A stretch of DNA of 30,965 bases from a virus: the UHGV virus genome UHGV-0305615. One strand, written 5' to 3'. Position 1 is the first letter of the stretch; each line of letters opens with the position of its first letter. The position numbers were made by a program, and so were the translations under genes. This document shows positions 4,681-30,834 of the stretch, piece after piece. Below the pieces are notes generated by a model. The model worked only from the letters and a program-made list of their open reading frames with translations. It was not told where the DNA came from and made no database searches.

Positions 4681-4695
4681 TTACCGTTGAGGTAA
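4681..4695. promoter_or_regulatory. Predicted operator (dyad TTACCGTTGAGGTAA), leftward early promoter region
   Basis: Exact TTACC-N5-GGTAA dyad just downstream of a leftward TTGACA -35 (rc of 4718-4723). Confidence 0.5.
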
Positions 4696-4742: not shown

Positions 4743-4757
4743 TTACCCATAAGGTAA
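4743..4757. promoter_or_regulatory. Predicted operator (dyad TTACCCATAAGGTAA)
   Basis: Exact TTACC-N5-GGTAA dyad between repressor-gene terminator and leftward promoter. Confidence 0.5.
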
Positions 4758-4814: not shown

Positions 4815-5399
4815 TTATTGTTTGTTTTTTTCGTTCTGGTTGATGACAAATTCAATGTAACTTTCGATCTTTGCCTTCTCTGTTTCAGGTAACAATGCGT
4901 AGCGCGAGCGGTCATAGTTGATAGTTGCAGGGTCATGCGGATGAATCAGTAGTTCATATCCGTGACGCCCGAATGCAGATGCAACATTCTCCAGGGTGGA
5001 AATGGAAACGCTGACTTCATTGTTTAACAGGCGGCTTATTGTCACCTGGGCGACGCCGGATGCGCGGTGAAGTTTTCCCTGAGTTGAAAGGTCGCGGCTT
5101 TCACTCATCCAGCGTTCCAGGTTGTGAGCTGCCAGCTGACCAATGTCGCTTGGGCCGACAGGCTGAAAACCTTCCTGAGAAAGCGAGCGATCGATATCAA
5201 GCCAGTTACGGGGTTTATTGGCGGCAGCTTCAATTTTTCGCGCAACCTGGTCGCCGATAACCTTCTTGCCAAGAGCCCAGCGGTTTACCAGATTTGCCTG
5301 AGTTCCAAGTTTTTCTGCCATCCGCGTCTGAACACCATTGAATTCACGGTCGATCAAGTCGTTGAGATTTTGCCTGCGGACGTCCTGGATACTTTTCAT
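4815..5399 (-). CDS. Prophage repressor, CI-like, two HTH domains, no peptidase S24 (autocleavage) domain
   Basis: 194 aa; two XRE-like HTH stretches (MAEKLGTQANLVNRWALGKK... and ASGVAQVTISRLLNNEVSVSISTLENVAS...); divergent from Cro-like gene; dyad operators on both sides. Confidence 0.7.
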   Translation of the reverse strand: MKSIQDVRRQNLNDLIDREFNGVQTRMAEKLGTQANLVNRWALGKKVIGDQVARKIEAAANKPRNWLDIDRSLSQEGFQPVGPSDIGQLAAHNLERWMSESRDLSTQGKLHRASGVAQVTISRLLNNEVSVSISTLENVASAFGRHGYELLIHPHDPATINYDRSRYALLPETEKAKIESYIEFVINQNEKNKQ

Positions 5400-5454: not shown

Positions 5455-5469
5455 TTACCCAACAGGTAA
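5455..5469. promoter_or_regulatory. Predicted operator (dyad TTACCCAACAGGTAA) in repressor/cro intergenic region
   Basis: Exact TTACC-N5-GGTAA dyad. Confidence 0.55.
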
Positions 5470-5502
5470 ATGCACCTCATAGGTAACTATCCTTGATTTT
5501 TG

Positions 5503-5517
5503 TTACCTTATGGGTGA
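5503..5517. promoter_or_regulatory. Predicted operator (TTACCTTATGGGTGA) overlapping rightward promoter
   Basis: One mismatch in right half; lies within the spacer of a TTGATT -35 / AT-rich -10 upstream of the Cro-like gene. Confidence 0.45.
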
Positions 5518-5553
5518 ATATTTATTATCTGAAATAAATATCAGGCAATAGCT

Positions 5554-5784
5554 ATGAGCGATAACGGACATTTCGATTTCAAAAAGCACTGGCTTGCACT
5601 TACTCCGGATGAGCGTGAAGCCTTCGCACAGGAAGCCGGAACGACGAGTCACTATATCCAGACTCACTTAACAGGTAAGCGCAAAATGCCAGGTAAAGTA
5701 TTGATGAATGGGCTTTTTAAAGCCTGTAAAACAAGACAATGGCTGCGCTCAAAAGCAGAACTGGCATACTTCTTCTACTCATGA
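5554..5784 (+). CDS. Cro-like HTH regulator
   Basis: 76 aa; divergent from repressor; HTH-like EAFAQEAGTTSHYIQTHLTGKRK; assignment mostly positional. Confidence 0.55.
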   Translation: MSDNGHFDFKKHWLALTPDEREAFAQEAGTTSHYIQTHLTGKRKMPGKVLMNGLFKACKTRQWLRSKAELAYFFYS

Positions 5785-7724: not shown

Positions 7725-7761
7725 TACCAGCGCGATAGCGCATTTTTTTACGTCTTGATAA

Positions 7762-7776
7762 TTACCTGTTGGGTAA
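7762..7776. promoter_or_regulatory. Predicted operator (dyad TTACCTGTTGGGTAA) filling a promoter spacer
   Basis: Exact dyad lying between TTGATA (7755-7760) and TAAAAT (7777-7782). Confidence 0.55.
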
Positions 7777-7823
7777 TAAAATATTCTAAAATCTATTGAT
7801 TTCGTGTATTATGTGGTTTTTAA

Positions 7824-7838
7824 TTACCTTAGGGGTAA
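7824..7838. promoter_or_regulatory. Predicted operator (dyad TTACCTTAGGGGTAA) 4 nt upstream of ATG 7842
   Basis: Exact dyad. Confidence 0.5.
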
Positions 7839-10196: not shown

Positions 10197-10409
10197 ATGC
10201 CAAAAATACGCTACGACCTTGAAGATATGAGAGATAACTCAGCAAATTTTCCGAAAGAGGTTAAATTTCTCATGCATAAGTATGGTTGCGCTAGGAGGGA
10301 TATAGTTATCGACAGTCAGCACCCTTGCGGCGAGGATGTAATTTTCATTCGCGGTAAATGGGAAGGGTATCTTGACGAGAGTTTTTACGATGAATTTGAT
10401 GGACTTTGA
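10197..10409 (+). CDS. Hypothetical small protein (70 aa)
   Basis: ATG 10197 within track ORF 10176..10409; GAAGG upstream with short spacing. Confidence 0.4.
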   Translation: MPKIRYDLEDMRDNSANFPKEVKFLMHKYGCARRDIVIDSQHPCGEDVIFIRGKWEGYLDESFYDEFDGL

Positions 10410-10483: not shown

Positions 10484-11080
10484 ATGATGCCTGCTGAACC
10501 TAAAACCTATAAACGCAAATCAACGCAATTTAAGCCACTAACAGCAATGCAGGAGGCTTATTGCCAGTCATACATCAAAACGCCTGAAAACCAGACTCAG
10601 GCAGCGATTAACGCAGGATTCTCCCCAAATACAGCGGCAGTTAAAGCCAGTGTCATGATGCGCGATGAACGCATTCAAAAACGGATTGCCGAGTTGATGG
10701 AGGAGCGCAACAAACGAATGCGCGTCAGTGCTGATTACGTTCTCATGCGCCTGGTGGAGATCGACCAGATGGACGTGATCGACATCCTCAACGACGATGG
10801 GAGCCTTAAGCCAATCCGCGAGTGGCCGAAAATCTGGCGCACTACGCTTAGTGGCTTTGATCTGTCATCGACCATCATGAACATGAACGAGGATTCGATA
10901 GAGACAATCCTCAAAAAAATTAAATGGCCTGACAAGGTGAAGAACCTCGAACTGATTGGTAAGCACGTCGACGTCAACGCATTCAAAGAACGCCTGGATG
11001 TTAATGTGAATGTGACAATTGCTGATCGCATAGCGGCAGCCAGGAAGAGACTGAAAGAACGTCAGGATGGCAATCAGTGA
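10484..11080 (+). CDS. Terminase small subunit
   Basis: Track ORF 10406..11080 trimmed to ATG 10484 because the 5' part contains the terminator and operator; family guess from sequence character and position before TerL. Confidence 0.65.
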   Translation: MMPAEPKTYKRKSTQFKPLTAMQEAYCQSYIKTPENQTQAAINAGFSPNTAAVKASVMMRDERIQKRIAELMEERNKRMRVSADYVLMRLVEIDQMDVIDILNDDGSLKPIREWPKIWRTTLSGFDLSSTIMNMNEDSIETILKKIKWPDKVKNLELIGKHVDVNAFKERLDVNVNVTIADRIAAARKRLKERQDGNQ

Positions 11081-12552
11081 CAGATACAGCGTTATCTCCT
11101 GAAGAGCAGTTAATCGAGGATATTGCAGGGTTCACTCACGATCCGCTTGGCTATGCCCTCTATGCGTTCCCGTGGGGGGAACAGGGGACTGAACTGGCAC
11201 ATGCCACCGGCCCACGTCAGTGGCAGGCTGATGCGTTCCGAGAGATACGTGATCACCTGCAGAATCCAGAGACGCGCTATCAGCCGCTTATGCTGGCACG
11301 CGCTTCTGGTCACGGTATTGGTAAATCCGCATTCATCTCAATGCTGATCAACTGGGGCATGTCCACTTGCGAGGATTGTAAGGTCGTGGTGACCGCCAAC
11401 ACCGACAACCAGCTACGAACGAAGACCTGGCCGGAAATTATCAAGTGGTCGAACCTTGCTATCACGAAAGACTGGTTTACCTGTACCGCTACCGCGATGT
11501 ACAGCAATGATCCTGGGCACGACAAGCGGTGGCGAGCTGACGCAATCCCCTGGTCTGAGCACAACACTGAGGCATTCGCCGGACTACACAACGAGCGCAA
11601 ACGCATCATCGTGGTATTCGATGAAGCGTCGAACATTGCGGATCTGGTGTGGGAAGTTGCTGAGGGTGCGCTTACGGACGAAGACACTGAGATTATCTGG
11701 GTGGCGTTCGGAAACCCTACACGTAACACCGGGCGTTTCCGCGAATGTTTCCGCAAATATAAACACCGCTGGAAAACTGCGCAGATTGACAGCCGGACGG
11801 TGGAAGGCACTAACAAACAGCAGTTGCAGAAATGGGTCGATGACTACGGGGAAGACAGCGACTTCGTTAAAATCCGTGTGCGCGGCATATTCCCTGATGC
11901 ATCTGAATTGCAGTTTATCCCTACCGGTCTTACTGATGAGGCAATGAAACGGGTGGTAACCGCTGCGCAGGTGGCGCATGCTCCGGTGATAATCGGTGTT
12001 GACCCTGCATATTCAGGCGTTGATGACGCGGTGATATACCTGCGGCAGGGGCTACACAGTAAGGTGCTGTGGACTGGCAACAAGACTACCGACGATCTGA
12101 TTATGGCGAAGCGTATCGCTGACTTTGAAGACCAGTATCAGGCTGACGCGGTGTTCATCGACTTCGGTTACGGTACCGGTCTGAAGTCAATCGGTGATGG
12201 TTGGGGGCGCACATGGCAACTTGTTCCGTTCGGTGGCGCGTCTACTGACCCGCAGATGCTCAACAAGCGTGGGGAGATGTTCAACTCATGCAAGACATGG
12301 CTGAGGCTGGGCGGGATGCTGGATGACCAGGAAACAGCGGACGACCTGTCGGCGGCAGAGTATAAAGTTCGAGTGGACGGTAAAATCGTTATCGAACCGA
12401 AGGAAGATATCAAGGAGCGGCTTGGGCGTTCTCCTGGTAAAGGCGATGCGCTACTGCTGACGTTTGCTTTCCCTGTGTCAAAGCGTCTGCGAATTCCCGG
12501 GCAGCAGAACCAGCAAGGCAAGGCCATCACAGATTACGATCCCTATGCTTAA
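11077..12552 (+). CDS. Terminase large subunit
   Basis: 491 aa; Walker-A-like ARASGHGIGKS; GTG start overlapping TerS stop with AGGATGG RBS. Confidence 0.9.
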   Translation: MTDTALSPEEQLIEDIAGFTHDPLGYALYAFPWGEQGTELAHATGPRQWQADAFREIRDHLQNPETRYQPLMLARASGHGIGKSAFISMLINWGMSTCEDCKVVVTANTDNQLRTKTWPEIIKWSNLAITKDWFTCTATAMYSNDPGHDKRWRADAIPWSEHNTEAFAGLHNERKRIIVVFDEASNIADLVWEVAEGALTDEDTEIIWVAFGNPTRNTGRFRECFRKYKHRWKTAQIDSRTVEGTNKQQLQKWVDDYGEDSDFVKIRVRGIFPDASELQFIPTGLTDEAMKRVVTAAQVAHAPVIIGVDPAYSGVDDAVIYLRQGLHSKVLWTGNKTTDDLIMAKRIADFEDQYQADAVFIDFGYGTGLKSIGDGWGRTWQLVPFGGASTDPQMLNKRGEMFNSCKTWLRLGGMLDDQETADDLSAAEYKVRVDGKIVIEPKEDIKERLGRSPGKGDALLLTFAFPVSKRLRIPGQQNQQGKAITDYDPYA

Positions 12553-12596
12553 TCCGCTAGTGGGGATAATGTCGTTGATATCCTCTGATGAGGATA

Positions 12597-12626
12597 AAAC
12601 AAAGCCAGCTCATCGGCTGGCTGTTT
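12597..12626. terminator. Bidirectional rho-independent terminator between convergent TerL and minus-strand ORF
   Basis: GCCAGC-TCATCG-GCTGGC hairpin (12604-12621) flanked by an A-run upstream and TGTTT downstream. Confidence 0.5.
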
Positions 12627-12638
12627 GTGACATGTCAC
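12627..12638. repeat. Perfect 12-bp palindrome GTGACATGTCAC (copy 2 of 3)
   Basis: Exact sequence. Confidence 0.6.
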
Positions 12639-12642
12639 GGTG

Positions 12643-13017
12643 TTACTTAATGGCATCAAATCCAGCGTTGATGGCTTCCGCAATATTGATGGCGCTTGTT
12701 TTATCGAAGTGCCCATTCTGAATAAGCGCCGCATGCAGGCATTGTAACTTCATGTTGTATAAGTGTTCGCTCATGTAATCATTATCACGTTTTTCCATTT
12801 CAGAATGTTGTGCTGTTATCCAGTCATGGAACGTAACGCTAGTACCATGGTCTTCGCTAAGAGTTAACCCGGCCAGTCCCTCACTCTGAATTACTTCGTA
12901 ATGCATTTCATTACCAGCAAAAACGCCATAAAAAACGCAGTCTTCAGCCTGAACGATACGAGAATATTTTAATGGCCATTCATTTAGATACTTAGCCAAC
13001 ATATCAATTGTTTTCAT
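12643..13017 (-). CDS. Hypothetical protein (124 aa), minus-strand insert between TerL and portal
   Basis: Complete ORF with AAGGTGAG RBS; lower GC than flanks; no recognised domain. Confidence 0.55.
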   Translation of the reverse strand: MKTIDMLAKYLNEWPLKYSRIVQAEDCVFYGVFAGNEMHYEVIQSEGLAGLTLSEDHGTSVTFHDWITAQHSEMEKRDNDYMSEHLYNMKLQCLHAALIQNGHFDKTSAINIAEAINAGFDAIK

Positions 13018-13028
13018 GATCTCACCTT

Positions 13029-13052
13029 AAAAAAATGCCCGGCGACCCGGGC
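13029..13052 (-). terminator. Rho-independent terminator on minus strand between tRNA and the 124-aa ORF
   Basis: GCCCGG-CGAC-CCGGGC hairpin followed on the minus strand by a T-run (A-run 13029-13035 on plus). Confidence 0.5.
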
Positions 13053-13215
13053 GAACTGGAAGCAATGAGTTATGCCTTCCGTGGCTGTACTGGTTTACAG
13101 CATGAAGTCATCGCAATGGCGTCCTGCTGTAAAAAGGGCGGTGATAGTTCTTCAAGGGAAACCATCACCGCCAAGCACCTGGAACTTCTGGCATCACGGT
13201 CCTTAGGCGTGATTC

Positions 13216-13292
13216 TGGCGTGGCATGCAGGATTCGAACCTGCGACCAACCGCTTAGAAGGCGGTTGCTCTGTCCGACTGAGCTAATGCCAC
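13216..13292 (-). tRNA. tRNA-Arg (anticodon UCU)
   Basis: 77-nt minus-strand sequence GTGGCATTAGCTCAGTCGGACAGAGCAACCGCCTTCTAAGCGGTTGGTCGCAGGTTCGAATCCTGCATGCCACGCCA folds as a cloverleaf: 7-bp acceptor stem, GCTC/GAGC D-stem, ACCGC/GCGGT anticodon stem with loop CTTCTAA, GCAGG/CCTGC T-stem with TTCGAAT loop, encoded CCA. Confidence 0.9.
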
Positions 13293-13614
13293 AACGCTGA
13301 GAGCACTTAGCCTGTTAAGGCACCACACTTTGTCGCGGCTCCATAAATGCTCTCATCGTTGTACCCTCGTCTCTTCCGAGGCGTCACACCGAATCGCCGG
13401 GATGGTGAATCCCCGTGCGCGGAATAAAACCGCTCGACTTGCACATTCCGGCTACCTGGTTCGTTTGCCCGAGCAAGGGAGGGTGCCCCTTAAACGTATC
13501 CAGACCGCTATCGTCGCATGTGCCATACGCCGTACTGCTCAAAATAAAAGCTCACTCCACCTGTTCAATTTAACGACAAGCCAGTCAGGTTAGTAACCGG
13601 AATGAACTTTTTGG

Positions 13615-13629
13615 TTACCTGAAAGGTAA
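13615..13629. promoter_or_regulatory. Predicted operator (dyad TTACCTGAAAGGTAA) between tRNA leader and virion genes
   Basis: Exact dyad; a leftward TTGACA -35 (rc of 13646-13651) lies 17 bp away. Confidence 0.5.
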
Positions 13630-13719
13630 TAATTCGTGCGTTAAATGTCAACAGTCTACGATAAATAAATCATATGTGGTTAAATTGGTAATAATTTAAT
13701 TGCGTACGGAGTCATTGAT

Positions 13720-13926
13720 ATGTGCATGGGTAGCTCACCATCAGTGCCTGCAACACCAGAAGTTCAGGCAGCACCACAGGAGCAGGATGCCGCCGTTGTT
13801 GATGCCCGCGACGAAGAAACTCGTCGCCGTCGCGCTGCTGCTGGTCGTAGTTCTACGCTGCTTACCGGTTCTCAGGGCGACACATCAACCGCTAATACCA
13901 GCGGTAAAACGCTACTTGGTCAGTAA
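13720..13926 (+). CDS. Small hypothetical virion-module protein (68 aa), possibly T7 gp6.7-like
   Basis: GGAG RBS; begins MC..., Pro/Ala/acidic then basic; sits just upstream of portal. Homology is a recollection, not verified. Confidence 0.4.
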   Translation: MCMGSSPSVPATPEVQAAPQEQDAAVVDARDEETRRRRAAAGRSSTLLTGSQGDTSTANTSGKTLLGQ

Positions 13927-13940
13927 CCGGAGTCATTGAA

Positions 13941-15620
13941 ATGGCGGAAACAACTAAAGAGCGATTGAACAAACAGTTCGCACAACTTGAAAGCGAGCGT
14001 CAGTCGTTCGAGCCGCACTGGCGCGAGTTGAGTGATTACATCAACCCGCGTGGTTCCCGCTTTCTGACTTCTGAGGTCAACCGTAACGATCGACGCAATA
14101 CACGCATTATTGATTCGACCGGGACTATGGCGGCGCGCACTCTCGCCAGCGGCATGATGTCAGGCATCACAAGCCCCGCGCGTCCGTGGTTTCGCCTGGC
14201 TACGCCAGATCCTGAAATGATGGATTATGGCCCTGTTAAGTTGTGGCTTGAGGCGGTGCAGAACCGCATGAACGATATGTTCAATAAGTCGAATCTCTAT
14301 CAGTCGCTGCCGCAGTTATACGGAAGCCTCGGCACATACAGCACTGGTGCAATGGCAGTGCTGGAGGATGACGAGGACATCATTCGCACAATGCCATTCC
14401 CGATAGGCAGTTACTACCTGGCTAACTCACCTCGTGGCAGTGTGGACACCTGTTTTCGCAAGTTCTCTATGACTGTTCGTCAGCTTGTTCAGGAGTTCGG
14501 GCTAAATAACGTCAGCGAATCCGTAAAAAGCATGTGGGAAAGCGGCACCTACGAGAAGTGGGTTGAAGTGATGCATTCGGTTTACCCGAACATTGACCGC
14601 GATACATCGAAGCTGGATAGCAAGAACAAGCCATTCAAATCGGTTTATTACGAGGTTGGTGGCGATAACGACAAGTTGTTGCGTGAGTCCGGATTCGATG
14701 AGTTTCCAATTATGGCTCCGCGCTGGGAAGTTAACGGCGAAGATGTTTATGGATCATCATGCCCGGGTATGCTGGCGCTTGGACCTGTTAAGGCATTGCA
14801 GCTTCTCCAGAAGCGCAAGTCGCAGTTGATTGATAAAGCCACCAATCCGCCGATGATTGCTCCGACTTCCCTCAAGAATCAGCGTGCCTCCCTTCTTCCT
14901 GGCGACATCACGTATATCGATCAGATTACTGGTCAGGATAGTTTCAGGCCTGCTTATCTGGTTAACCCCAGTACAGCAGATTTGGTGGCAGACATTCAGG
15001 ACACTCGTCAAATCATTAACAGCGCCTACTTTGTCGATCTGTTCATGATGTTGCAGAACATCAATACCCGCTCGATGCCTGTTGAAGCGGTGATCGAAAT
15101 GAAAGAAGAAAAACTTCTGATGTTGGGGCCGGTTCTGGAGCGTCTGAACGACGAATGTCTTAATCCTCTCATTGACCGCGCTTTCTCGATGATGGTGCGT
15201 AAAAACATGCTGCCGCCACCACCTGACGCGATGGAAGGTATGCCCCTGAAGGTCGAATACATTTCCGTCATGGCTCAGGCGCAGAAGTCTATCGGCCTGT
15301 CCAGTCTGGCATCCACGGTCAACTTCATTGGTCAACTTGCGCAAGCGAAACCAGAAGCTCTCGACAAACTCAACGTTGATCAGGCGATCGATGCATTCGC
15401 TGATATGTCCGGAGTGTCTCCAACCGTCATTGTTCCGCAGGAACAGGTTGAGCAGGCTCGCCAGCAACGGGCACAGCAACAACAGCAGCAACAAATGATG
15501 GCGATGGGGATGGCGGCGGCACAGGGTGCCAAGACGCTAAGCGAAGCTAAAACTTCGGATCCGAGTGTTTTGTCAGCTATGGCGAATGCATTTAGTGGTC
15601 AGGGTGGGCAATCACAATGA
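13941..15620 (+). CDS. Portal protein, T7 gp8-like
   Basis: 559 aa; GGAG RBS; Gln-rich C-terminus (QQRAQQQQQQQMMAMGMAAAQ) and overall layout resemble the remembered T7 connector. Confidence 0.8.
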   Translation: MAETTKERLNKQFAQLESERQSFEPHWRELSDYINPRGSRFLTSEVNRNDRRNTRIIDSTGTMAARTLASGMMSGITSPARPWFRLATPDPEMMDYGPVKLWLEAVQNRMNDMFNKSNLYQSLPQLYGSLGTYSTGAMAVLEDDEDIIRTMPFPIGSYYLANSPRGSVDTCFRKFSMTVRQLVQEFGLNNVSESVKSMWESGTYEKWVEVMHSVYPNIDRDTSKLDSKNKPFKSVYYEVGGDNDKLLRESGFDEFPIMAPRWEVNGEDVYGSSCPGMLALGPVKALQLLQKRKSQLIDKATNPPMIAPTSLKNQRASLLPGDITYIDQITGQDSFRPAYLVNPSTADLVADIQDTRQIINSAYFVDLFMMLQNINTRSMPVEAVIEMKEEKLLMLGPVLERLNDECLNPLIDRAFSMMVRKNMLPPPPDAMEGMPLKVEYISVMAQAQKSIGLSSLASTVNFIGQLAQAKPEALDKLNVDQAIDAFADMSGVSPTVIVPQEQVEQARQQRAQQQQQQQMMAMGMAAAQGAKTLSEAKTSDPSVLSAMANAFSGQGGQSQ

Positions 15621-30270: not shown

Positions 30271-30603
30271 TCAGTTATTTACTTTCTTTGGCACTATTGC
30301 TGATAATGAGATCATAAAGCCAGTTAGAGCAGCAATAATTAATGGGAATATGAAAGCATCTGAAGTTCTCAGTGGATTCTTCATATCGAACAGAATAACA
30401 ATGAAGAATGCGCTGGTTGCAAAAGTAGATGATGAATAAACCTCATTCATCTTGTATTGCAACTTATCCAAAGAAAAAGGAGGCGTATCTTTGCAAACGG
30501 CATCCCATATCAGATGAACAGCAAGATAAGCAATGCACAGTATGAAATAAAACCTTGTCAATTGCTGTGCATCTCTGGGCGCAAGCCAAGATAAATCAGG
30601 CAT
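30271..30603 (-). CDS. Hypothetical membrane protein (110 aa, about three predicted TM segments)
   Basis: Hydrophobic stretches FYFILCIAYLAVHLIW, FATSAFFIVILF, AFIFPLIIAALTGFMISLSAIV; start 1 nt after upstream gene's stop. Confidence 0.6.
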   Translation of the reverse strand: MPDLSWLAPRDAQQLTRFYFILCIAYLAVHLIWDAVCKDTPPFSLDKLQYKMNEVYSSSTFATSAFFIVILFDMKNPLRTSDAFIFPLIIAALTGFMISLSAIVPKKVNN

Positions 30604-30604
30604 T

Positions 30605-30793
30605 TTAGTTGGCTAACTTCTTTGCGGCATAGATAGCAGGGAGTGCAACAGCACCAGCCACAGCAAATGCATAGGCTATCCCAGCTGTAACAGTAAAAGC
30701 AGGAAGCAGGAAAGATAATCCGCCTGGTAGGGCAAAGCCTAAGCCCGCTCCGCCAATAATGGCCTTCAGCAATGTAATGATGTTGATTTCCAT
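30605..30793 (-). CDS. Hypothetical small membrane protein (62 aa, Gly/Ala-rich, two hydrophobic segments)
   Basis: GAGGGGG RBS; MEINIITLLKAIIGGAGLGFALPGG... with charged C-terminus KKLAN. Confidence 0.55.
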   Translation of the reverse strand: MEINIITLLKAIIGGAGLGFALPGGLSFLLPAFTVTAGIAYAFAVAGAVALPAIYAAKKLAN

Positions 30794-30819
30794 GTTTCCC
30801 CCTCATGTAAACTCTCGGT

Positions 30820-30834
30820 TTACCTTTGGGGTAA
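30820..30834. promoter_or_regulatory. Predicted operator (dyad TTACCTTTGGGGTAA) abutting the -10 of the membrane-operon promoter
   Basis: Exact dyad; minus-strand promoter TTGCAG (rc of 30857-30862), 17-bp spacer, TACTAT (rc of 30834-30839). Confidence 0.5.

Follow-up and report, generated by a model that had tools for sequence, protein, structure and literature searches.

Background

Which transcription unit does a short inverted repeat in front of the virion genes of a prophage control, and in which direction? The repeat considered here lies in a 30,965-nt stretch of viral DNA (UHGV virus genome UHGV-0305615; the whole stretch analysed is hereafter called the window), within a non-coding gap that has a tRNA-Arg gene with anticodon UCU on one side and a gp3-like open reading frame (ORF) of 68 aa on the other. 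An initial annotation, made from the letters alone, had described the repeat as an operator on the -10 position of a leftward promoter that would transcribe the tRNA and a 124-aa ORF, had named a rightward promoter of the head genes as the alternative, and had held that the sequence does not decide between the two directions. On this last point the comparative data presented below lead further: they favour the leftward direction, leaving some probability for rightward control. We consider it likely that the repeat is an operator of the prophage repressor Rep, one of 11 such sites dispersed over the window, and that it overlaps the -10 element and start of a strong leftward sigma-70 promoter.

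Judged by its sequence and gene content, the window is a prophage of the phiV10/epsilon15 type (Uetakevirus). In ~1.3 kb around the repeat it is 98-99% identical to phiV10, HEMP4, TL-2011b, ZX5 and their relatives, and ~79% identical to SPN1S, SPC32H and epsilon15, which are Salmonella phages of the genus Uetakevirus; the order of its genes is that of phiV10 and epsilon15. The same 1.3-kb stretch is matched, with a coverage of at least 80%, by 503 of 5426 complete E. coli genomes.

A family of dispersed, probable operators

The repeat at 13615-13629 (TTACCTgaaAGGTAA / TTACCTGAAAGGTAA) is the exact dyad in the non-coding gap before the structural genes that had been described, with 6-bp arms (TTACCT and AGGTAA) around a centre of 3 nt. 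In its 17-bp form, gTTACCTGAAAGGTAAt, it spans 13614-13630, and the sole imperfect pair is the outermost one (G...T). The perfect TTGACA reported next to it on the minus strand could likewise be confirmed (TGTCAA at 13646-13651 on the strand given). Neither the dyad nor TTGACA is significant by itself: about 7.6 perfect inverted repeats with 6-bp arms at one fixed spacing are expected in 30,965 bp (30965/4^6), and about 15 copies of TTGACA on the two strands of the window. The combination TTGACA-N17-TACC, with up to one mismatch, is not enriched in the window either (1 found vs 1.77 expected). The coupling of a -35 hexamer to an operator is unique to the dyad site, so that conservation, and not recurrence, supports it.

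The motif itself, by contrast with these chance levels, is strongly over-represented. TTACC-N5-GGTAA with up to one mismatch occurs at 11 sites in the window vs 0.47 +/- 0.66 expected, a number that none of 100 shuffles reached. The sites start at 4681, 4743, 5455, 5503, 5840, 7762, 7824, 10452, 10470, 13615 and 30820, and every one is either intergenic or placed at the start of a gene: two sites belong to a PL-like promoter immediately downstream of the repressor gene, two occupy the interval between this gene and the cro-like gene, and the rest follow terminators and head further units. The core of the dyad, TTACCTGAAAGGTAA, has no mismatch to the motif. In most members of the family the arms are TTACCC/GGGTAA, without ACCT/AGGT, which identifies TTACC/GGTAA as the conserved determinant. 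Equivalent enriched sets are found at syntenic places in epsilon15 (15 sites), SPC32H (18) and ZX5 (14), vs about one in shuffles.

Conservation at the dyad was followed in an alignment of the region upstream of gp3, comprising 58 distinct sequences from 77 loci in phages and prophages of at least ten enterobacterial genera (Escherichia, Salmonella, Enterobacter, Klebsiella, Citrobacter, Superficieibacter, Pseudocitrobacter, Scandinavium, Pseudescherichia and 'Ca. Erwinia dacicola'). The half-sites are unchanged in 57 of the 58 (the exception is TTATC) while the 5-nt centre varies, and from the operator to the ribosome-binding region of gp3 the alignment contains no indel at all.

Two other identities were considered for these sites and rejected. 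The dyad does not resemble a terminator or RNA hairpin: its 6-bp stem is rich in A/T, the loop measures 3 nt and a T-run is missing, and the terminator scan was negative at this place. The stoperators of mycobacteriophage L5 block elongation from within transcribed regions and are asymmetric, their action depending on orientation; the family sites are symmetric, intergenic and at or next to promoters, and have the dispersed distribution alone in common with them.

The presumed cognate repressor

In the record of epsilon15 (AY150271.2) eight such sites are annotated as 'protein_bind, repressor, lysogeny'. One of them, ATTACCTAAAAGGTAAT at 2931-2947, annotated protein_bind repressor, aligns column for column with 13614-13630 of the window. 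The repressor encoded in the window is 42% identical to Rep of SPC32H over its full length, matches the crystal structure of that protein (PDB 5D50, E = 4e-42) and contains an HTH_3 domain. According to the passage of PMC9638917 that cites Kim et al. 2016, binding of SPC32H Rep to palindromic sites involves a tetramer, which the antirepressor Ant disassembles. Overexpression of the orthologous repressor of ZX5 lowered the holin and endolysin transcripts by >99.9% (PMC9782041), in a paper that contains no operator mapping. Annotation, genomic logic and homology thus link Rep to the motif and support the dyad as a predicted binding site of the prophage repressor. The term operator, already used in the initial annotation, gains its justification from the bracketing of the repressor gene by the 11-member family, from the annotated orthologue in epsilon15 and from the presence of a cognate Rep gene. 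In lambda it is established that Cro shares its operators with the repressor and, by analogy, the Cro-like protein of the window probably binds the dyad as well.

With regard to antirepression, the gene adjoining the operator at 30820 (82 aa, 30558-30806) is not homologous to SPC32H Ant. In epsilon15 (locus L003, 19841-19860) and ZX5 (locus L004, ~2365-2385), an ant-like gene has upstream of it a near-perfect LexA box (TACTGTATAAACATACAGTA), which adjoins the Rep operator that this gene and the tailspike promoter have in common, an arrangement that fits SOS-controlled antirepression.

A probable leftward promoter overlapping the operator

The distance of 17 bp given earlier between TTGACA and the dyad holds for the -10 hexamer, TACCTT (minus strand, 13628-13623), which starts one base inside the dyad and is separated from the -35 hexamer by a 17-nt spacer (13629-13645); to the first base of the dyad there are 16 nt (13645-13630). 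Among the 58 distinct sequences, the minus-strand -35 hexamer reads TTGACA in 42, TTGACC in 11, TTGACT in three, and TTGACG and TTGGCA in one each, so that the core TTGAC is kept in 57, and its distance to the operator is constant. The -10 hexamer is TACCTT in 44 and TACCCT in 14 sequences, with A2 and T6 kept in every case. The 16-nt stretch between the -35 hexamer and the dyad (13630-13645) occurs in 30 versions and again without an indel; its length is fixed and its sequence free. Hexamers and spacing that stay fixed around a freely varying spacer are the expected signature of a promoter.

Scans with a sigma-70 weight matrix, which was composed of approximate published hexamer frequencies and yields relative scores only, point in the same direction. 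Of the sigma-70-like candidates in each of the ten lineages scanned, TTGACA-17-TACC(T/C)T scores highest (10.8-12.0), and its score of 12.0 in the window is the joint second among the sigma-70-like sites of the whole window. Four of the top eight promoter predictions in the window overlap Rep operators, namely 7755-7782 (operator 7762), the promoter at the dyad, the PL-like 4723-4695 (operator 4681) and the PR-like 5500-5528 (operator 5503). The predicted transcription start of the leftward promoter lies near 13616. Upstream of TTGACA, at about -40 to -55, two conserved islands (CTACG and AAATAA(AT); Table 1) form a stretch that is A/T-rich on the minus strand and could act as an UP-like element. 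A leftward promoter overlapping the dyad is, on the comparative evidence, the better supported reading, and the placement of the dyad on its -10 element agrees with its top rank in ten lineages, with the constant spacing and with the minus-sense unit that follows.

Several points weigh against this reading. A stricter consensus scan of 12500-14100 reports no promoter, because it needs 4/6 matches per hexamer and TACCTT matches the consensus at 3/6 (the -35 TTGACA at 6/6). The conservation of TTGAC could belong to a larger conserved region, 13646-13699, and not to a -35 element. A second minus-strand candidate, TTGAAC-16-TATTTT (13568-13541, score 9.2), is free of operators and situated at the 5' edge of the structured RNA domain described below, and could express RNA and tRNA in lysogens; it occurs in phiV10-type sequences only and is absent from all other lineages. 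The repressor-site annotation of epsilon15 is itself a prediction. Finally, every other promoter with the sequence box described further below has an upstream operator, so that the main task of the operator could be rightward control.

A structured RNA downstream of the promoter

From the operator to ~13030, the DNA is non-coding, strongly conserved in blocks and devoid of codon periodicity. Its promoter-proximal part would give rise to a 5' domain of seven helices with 36 pairs. In ten sequences, 95.6% of the cells of these helices are paired and 10 of the 36 pairs show compensatory changes, while slid controls gave 31-46% pairing; in 500 shuffles, the paired fraction and the covariation score always stayed below the observed values, and the number of compensatory pairs was reached twice. 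With 80 distinct sequences the values are 92.3% of cells paired, 15 pairs (137 cells) with compensatory changes, and 29-46% in the slid controls. G-U pairs are abundant in this domain when it is read on the minus strand; since each of them would become an A-C mismatch on the opposite strand, the RNA is minus-sense. Folding of the single leader sequence was uninformative (z = -1.35 for the minus and -1.28 for the plus strand).

The tRNA-Arg(UCU) is missing from most relatives, where its slot holds other sequence; epsilon15 has a central deletion and is devoid of the tRNA and of most of the RNA domain. What had been called a tRNA leader is thus a conserved structured RNA that is present with or without a tRNA, and the tRNA-Arg appears from this distribution to be optional cargo inside the RNA unit. 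AGA codons make up 6.4 per 1000 codons of the late and terminase genes and 6.2 per 1000 of the early genes, about three times the E. coli average, and with such a high usage a tRNA-Arg(UCU) supplied on induction would make sense.

On the far side of the tRNA the unit continues with a 3' domain, which ends in a terminator (13052-13037) of the form GCCCGG..CCGGGC followed by U7; its stems show compensatory changes in RNAalifold and were also found by the terminator scan. Structured RNA, tRNA and the terminators themselves are minus-sense throughout. The earlier proposal of a leftward transcript holds for the tRNA, which is part of this unit on the minus strand, and has to be modified for the 124-aa ORF: two terminator-like hairpins (13172-13137 and 13052-13037) separate it from the tRNA, and its ribosome-binding site and ATG (13028-13017) follow directly on the U-run of the terminator in all relatives. 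This leaves no room for a promoter, and expression of the ORF therefore needs read-through.

The RNA is absent from existing annotation. The sole Rfam match in the window is the tRNA, and the leader region of nine relatives is without a match (an int-alpA match in Tyrion was set aside, being located elsewhere and not in the leader region); RefSeq records carry no annotation over the structured RNA, and literature searches for Uetakevirus non-coding RNA and for conserved strings of the RNA returned nothing relevant; a paper on mEpimmI deals with different phages. A plus-strand ORF at 13035-13286, listed as a hypothetical protein in phiV10 and ZX5 (the equivalent of PhiV10p04), overlaps the tRNA-Arg and the conserved RNA hairpins in antisense and is probably not a gene.

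A promoter-like block in front of gp3

The gp3-like ORF opens the virion (portal/capsid) operon, with the portal, capsid and tail genes next, and has a ribosome-binding site GGAG at 13709-13712. Although this operon must have a promoter, neither consensus nor weight-matrix scans of the plus strand found a sigma-70 consensus promoter upstream of it, and no recognisable plus-strand -35 or -10 hexamers lie at or next to the dyad; by weight matrix, the best plus-strand candidates score at most 8.3 across the ten lineages, at positions that are not conserved, and 5.1 in the window (13560-13719). There is, however, a 26-nt block at 13673-13699 (TATGTGGTTAAATTGGTAATAATTTAA) that does not vary among the relatives found by BLAST and has no second copy in the window. 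Its conservation ends at 13699, just before a variable 5' untranslated region, which points to an element acting at the DNA level. With its box CATATGTGGTT and -10-like hexamer (13671-13695, 40-65 bp from the dyad; Table 1), the segment 13671-13699 is the probable rightward promoter of the gp3/portal/capsid operon, ~60-80 bp to the right of the operator. Rightward control, the alternative named at the outset, fails as far as sigma-70 hexamers at the dyad are concerned and keeps some probability insofar as the operator lies upstream of a likely head-gene promoter, as it does at the other promoters with this box.

The box recurs exactly or with one or two mismatches, and every copy is intergenic and lies on the coding strand. 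It precedes a -10-like hexamer (TAATAA, TAATAG or TATGAT) by 7 nt at gp3, at the tailspike/tail-fibre promoters of epsilon15 and ZX5 and at the lysis promoter of epsilon15; the ZX5 lysis and the DUF1064 copies have no -10-like hexamer at this spacing. About 0.02 exact copies are expected per genome; with up to two mismatches the box is not enriched, and the informative copies are the exact and one-mismatch ones only. It may represent a phage-specific class of promoter or the site of an activator. In most of the epsilon15 and ZX5 cases a Rep operator starts 44-47 bp before the box. The gp3 interval is 56 bp, longer by about one helical turn, and the extra space is where the leftward -35 is located.

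The block also contains a half-site, GGTAAT (13687-13692), exactly 62 bp from the GGTAA of the operator (13625 vs 13687). The same distance, measured from start to start, separates the operator pairs 4681/4743 and 7762/7824 of the window, 32555/32617 and 35907/35969 of epsilon15 (L003), and their counterparts in ZX5. A full partner operator at +62 bp from the dyad was considered and rejected, since the right half-site alone is present and the left half matches at one of five positions. From this spacing we infer that one Rep tetramer bridging the operator and the half-site might silence both divergent promoters by looping.

Alternative explanations

The operator could serve the rightward promoter of gp3, portal and capsid only, with TTGACA as part of the conserved region upstream of that promoter and the leftward RNA made from another one. 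This would be in keeping with the placing of Rep operators before the box at the tailspike/tail-fibre, lysis and DUF1064 loci of epsilon15 and ZX5, with the half-site in the -10 region of the block at the same 62 bp that separates full operator pairs, with the constant distance between operator and block and, in the phiV10 lineage, with the alternative minus-strand candidate at 13568-13541. We nevertheless regard it as rather unlikely. An operator centred near -80 cannot by itself occlude RNA polymerase and would require looping or interference with an activator; lineages that lack the candidate 13568-13541 still keep the RNA; and the islands GTCAA, CTACG and AAATAA are absent between operator and box at the tailspike and lysis promoters. 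They are hence specific to the gp3 site, as expected if they serve a leftward promoter.

A different question is whether Rep is the protein that reads the dyad. That it is bound mainly by another protein, such as a Cro-like protein, IHF or a host factor of the HTH-XRE type recognising ACCT-N3-AGGT, a core that resembles the MqsA palindrome, seems distinctly improbable to us, even though an IHF site is entered in the epsilon15 record at 2918-2940, over the left half of the operator, and a Cro-like repressor is encoded at 5554-5784 of the window. The window does not preserve the IHF-like ATTCAACTAATTA of epsilon15 and has ATGAACTTTTTGG instead, the conserved determinant is TTACC/GGTAA, most family members being without ACCT/AGGT, and binding of Cro would supplement that of Rep and not replace it. 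Least of all do we believe in a chance palindrome, or in an RNA hairpin without a role in DNA binding. The number of such palindromes expected and the lack of enrichment of TTGACA-N17-TACC would suit the former, yet none of 100 shuffles reached the 11 sites of the family, and the half-sites of the dyad are conserved across 58 relatives around a varying centre; the A/T-rich stem, the 3-nt loop and the missing U-run speak against the latter.

Proposed mechanism

Taking the repeat as a Rep operator on a leftward promoter, we propose the following scheme. Through the 11 dispersed TTACC-N5-GGTAA operators, Rep would silence each transcription unit directly. In the lysogen, Rep on 13615-13629 would cover the -10 element and the start point and exclude RNA polymerase; once Rep is inactivated, the leftward promoter would fire. 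Its predicted product is a minus-strand RNA of ~590 nt, from ~13616 to ~13030, made up of the structured domain, the tRNA-Arg(UCU), the 3' hairpin domain and the intrinsic terminator, and the 124-aa ORF would be reached through terminator read-through. The same operator, ~80 bp upstream of the probable rightward start of the gp3/portal/capsid operon, may help to silence that promoter too, as operators 44-47 bp before the same box would do elsewhere among these phages.

Further features of the window

The features that surround the operator and those used for comparison are collected in Table 1. The start of the small-terminase gene deserves a remark: a TTG start at 10406, as in phiV10, would enclose two operators and a terminator within the gene and is for this reason less likely than an ATG near 10487 in the style of epsilon15 and ZX5, directly after the operators and the extended -10 TGgTACTAT.

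Table 1. Coordinates of genes, operators, RNA domains and promoter elements in the window, with copies of the box and of the RNA module elsewhere
Feature	Position	Strand	Remarks
Operator pair at PL-like promoter	4681-4695, 4743-4757		62 bp apart; promoter TTGACA-17-AATCAT, minus strand
Repressor gene rep	4815-5399	minus	follows the early-left genes
Operators in PR/PRM region, between rep and cro-like gene	5455-5469, 5503-5517		
cro-like gene	5554-5784		replication genes next
Operator pair upstream of DUF1064 gene	7762-7776, 7824-7838		62 bp apart; first within spacer of TTGATA-16-TAAAAT
Two adjacent operators just before small-terminase start codon	10452-10484		after extended -10 TGgTACTAT; epsilon15 orthologue annotated as repressor site
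terS/terL	~10487-12552		
124-aa ORF	12643-13017	minus	phrog_4846, Sf6 gp66 / N4 gp49-like family (annotations and family match)
3' domain of RNA unit	13029-13215	minus	hairpin AUCACG..CGUGAU; hairpin + U-run 13172-13137; long UUUACA/UGUAAA helix; terminator 13052-13037
tRNA-Arg, anticodon UCU	13216-13292	minus	
5' domain ('B-domain') of structured RNA	13361-13537	minus	seven helices, 36 pairs
Conserved islands CTACG and AAATAA(AT)	13656-13670	minus	A/T-rich, ~-40 to -55 of leftward promoter
Box CATATGTGGTT	13671-13681	plus	then 7 nt, then -10-like TAATAA(T) 13689-13695
gp3-like 68-aa ORF	13720-13926	plus	phrog_831 match; epsilon15 gp3 and phiV10 p06 annotations
Copies of the box	window 13671-13681, 7808-7818; L003 (epsilon15) 2988, 19940, 24751, 35953; L004 (ZX5) 2467, 5897, 16155, 22812		
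Copies of the RNA module	L140 (P1) 2490-2672; L141 (mEp460) 2200-2740; IMG/VR loci L020-L139		

The RNA module in other phages

The 5' domain of the structured RNA extends well beyond Uetakevirus. It is present in P1, P7, D6, SJ46 and RCS47, in Klebsiella and Stenotrophomonas phages, and in the lambdoid phages cdtI, mEp460, Ayreon, 2H10 and Stx2a/Stx2c, where it lies directly downstream of a cI-like gene in the direction of PL. In P1 it is found between trnI and ban, in the sense of the ban operon, which is controlled by the C1 repressor, and in mEp460 the whole module (5' domain, slot, hairpin and U-run) is situated between PL and the first gene. An exact 26-mer of the 5' domain occurs in at least 120 IMG/VR contigs, 56 of them with a Uetakevirus context and 64 with another, and the structured RNA is found in 1840 of 5426 complete E. 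coli genomes (34%), on chromosomes and P1-like plasmids.

This recurring context, just downstream of a repressor-controlled promoter, independently fits control of the promoter 13651-13623 by the repressor. It also allows a broader proposal, which we put forward tentatively as a possibility: the operator could switch on and off a widespread phage RNA module that has not been described before. The module would consist of a structured 5' domain of ~170 nt, a slot for a tRNA or other sequence and a 3' domain with hairpin and terminator, and recurs at repressor-controlled early operons of three groups of temperate phages that are unrelated to one another (epsilon15-like, lambdoid and P1-like). As an idea only, the module could act in cis, e.g. 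as a put-like antitermination or an attenuation leader, because it is always preceded by a promoter under repressor control and followed by terminator-like hairpins, beyond which the next genes lie. Alternatively, and likewise as a mere idea, it could be a processed stable RNA that is made on induction only.

Comparison with known systems

The operator as such is of an already known kind, an ordinary promoter-overlapping phage operator, since it is orthologous to the site annotated in epsilon15. Other features of the locus, each supported by sequence comparison, seem not to be described in the literature searched: the leftward promoter conserved among the relatives, the promoter block of the box type, the 62-bp spacing and the structured RNA module. 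Common prophages of E. coli and Salmonella appear to put their repressor directly on every transcription unit, including the packaging, virion and tail genes, and seem not to depend on an antitermination cascade of the lambda style. The probable position of the head-gene promoter, in an invariant block of its own that carries the shared box, lends itself to testable promoter constructs, e.g. for reporter phages based on phiV10 or SPC32H. If the RNA proves functional, the operator defines when it is made, and the RNA gated by this operator is the part that we regard as worth following up.

Among the systems to which the locus can be compared, epsilon15 (AY150271.2) is nearest in sequence. It has the orthologous site at an equal distance upstream of gp3, followed by TGTCAA and the invariant block, and shares both the consensus and the dispersed distribution of the sites (terS, gp3, ant/tailspike, PL and the DUF1064/RuvC-like gene); it differs in the outermost pair of the site, A...T where the window has G...T, and its record shows no promoter there and lists an IHF site without a conserved counterpart in the window. 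The Rep/Ant system of SPC32H (PDB 5D50, 5D4Z) provides a homologous repressor and the same operator at the same place (3175). Unlike in SPC32H, the gene by the 30820 operator of the window is not an Ant homologue, and the link of Rep to the dyad is drawn by inference.

With lambda OL and OR, the sites have in common that they are dyad-symmetric, overlap sigma-70 promoters, stand in pairs or triplets around the repressor gene, would act by occlusion of RNA polymerase and are probably common to repressor and Cro. The lambda operators, however, are confined to the immunity region and the late genes are reached via the antiterminators N and Q, whereas in the window prophage operators are also placed directly at the packaging, virion and tail-gene units. 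The closest analogue in overall logic is P1 C1 (Op72/Oban, ban operon), where one repressor governs many scattered operons through operators that overlap promoters, and where the C1-controlled ban operon contains tRNA genes and the same structured RNA domain. Repressor and operator sequence are unrelated in the two phages, the operators of P1 being asymmetric 17-mers, and in P1 a distance of 2.3 kb, trnI included, separates the RNA from the promoter upstream of it.

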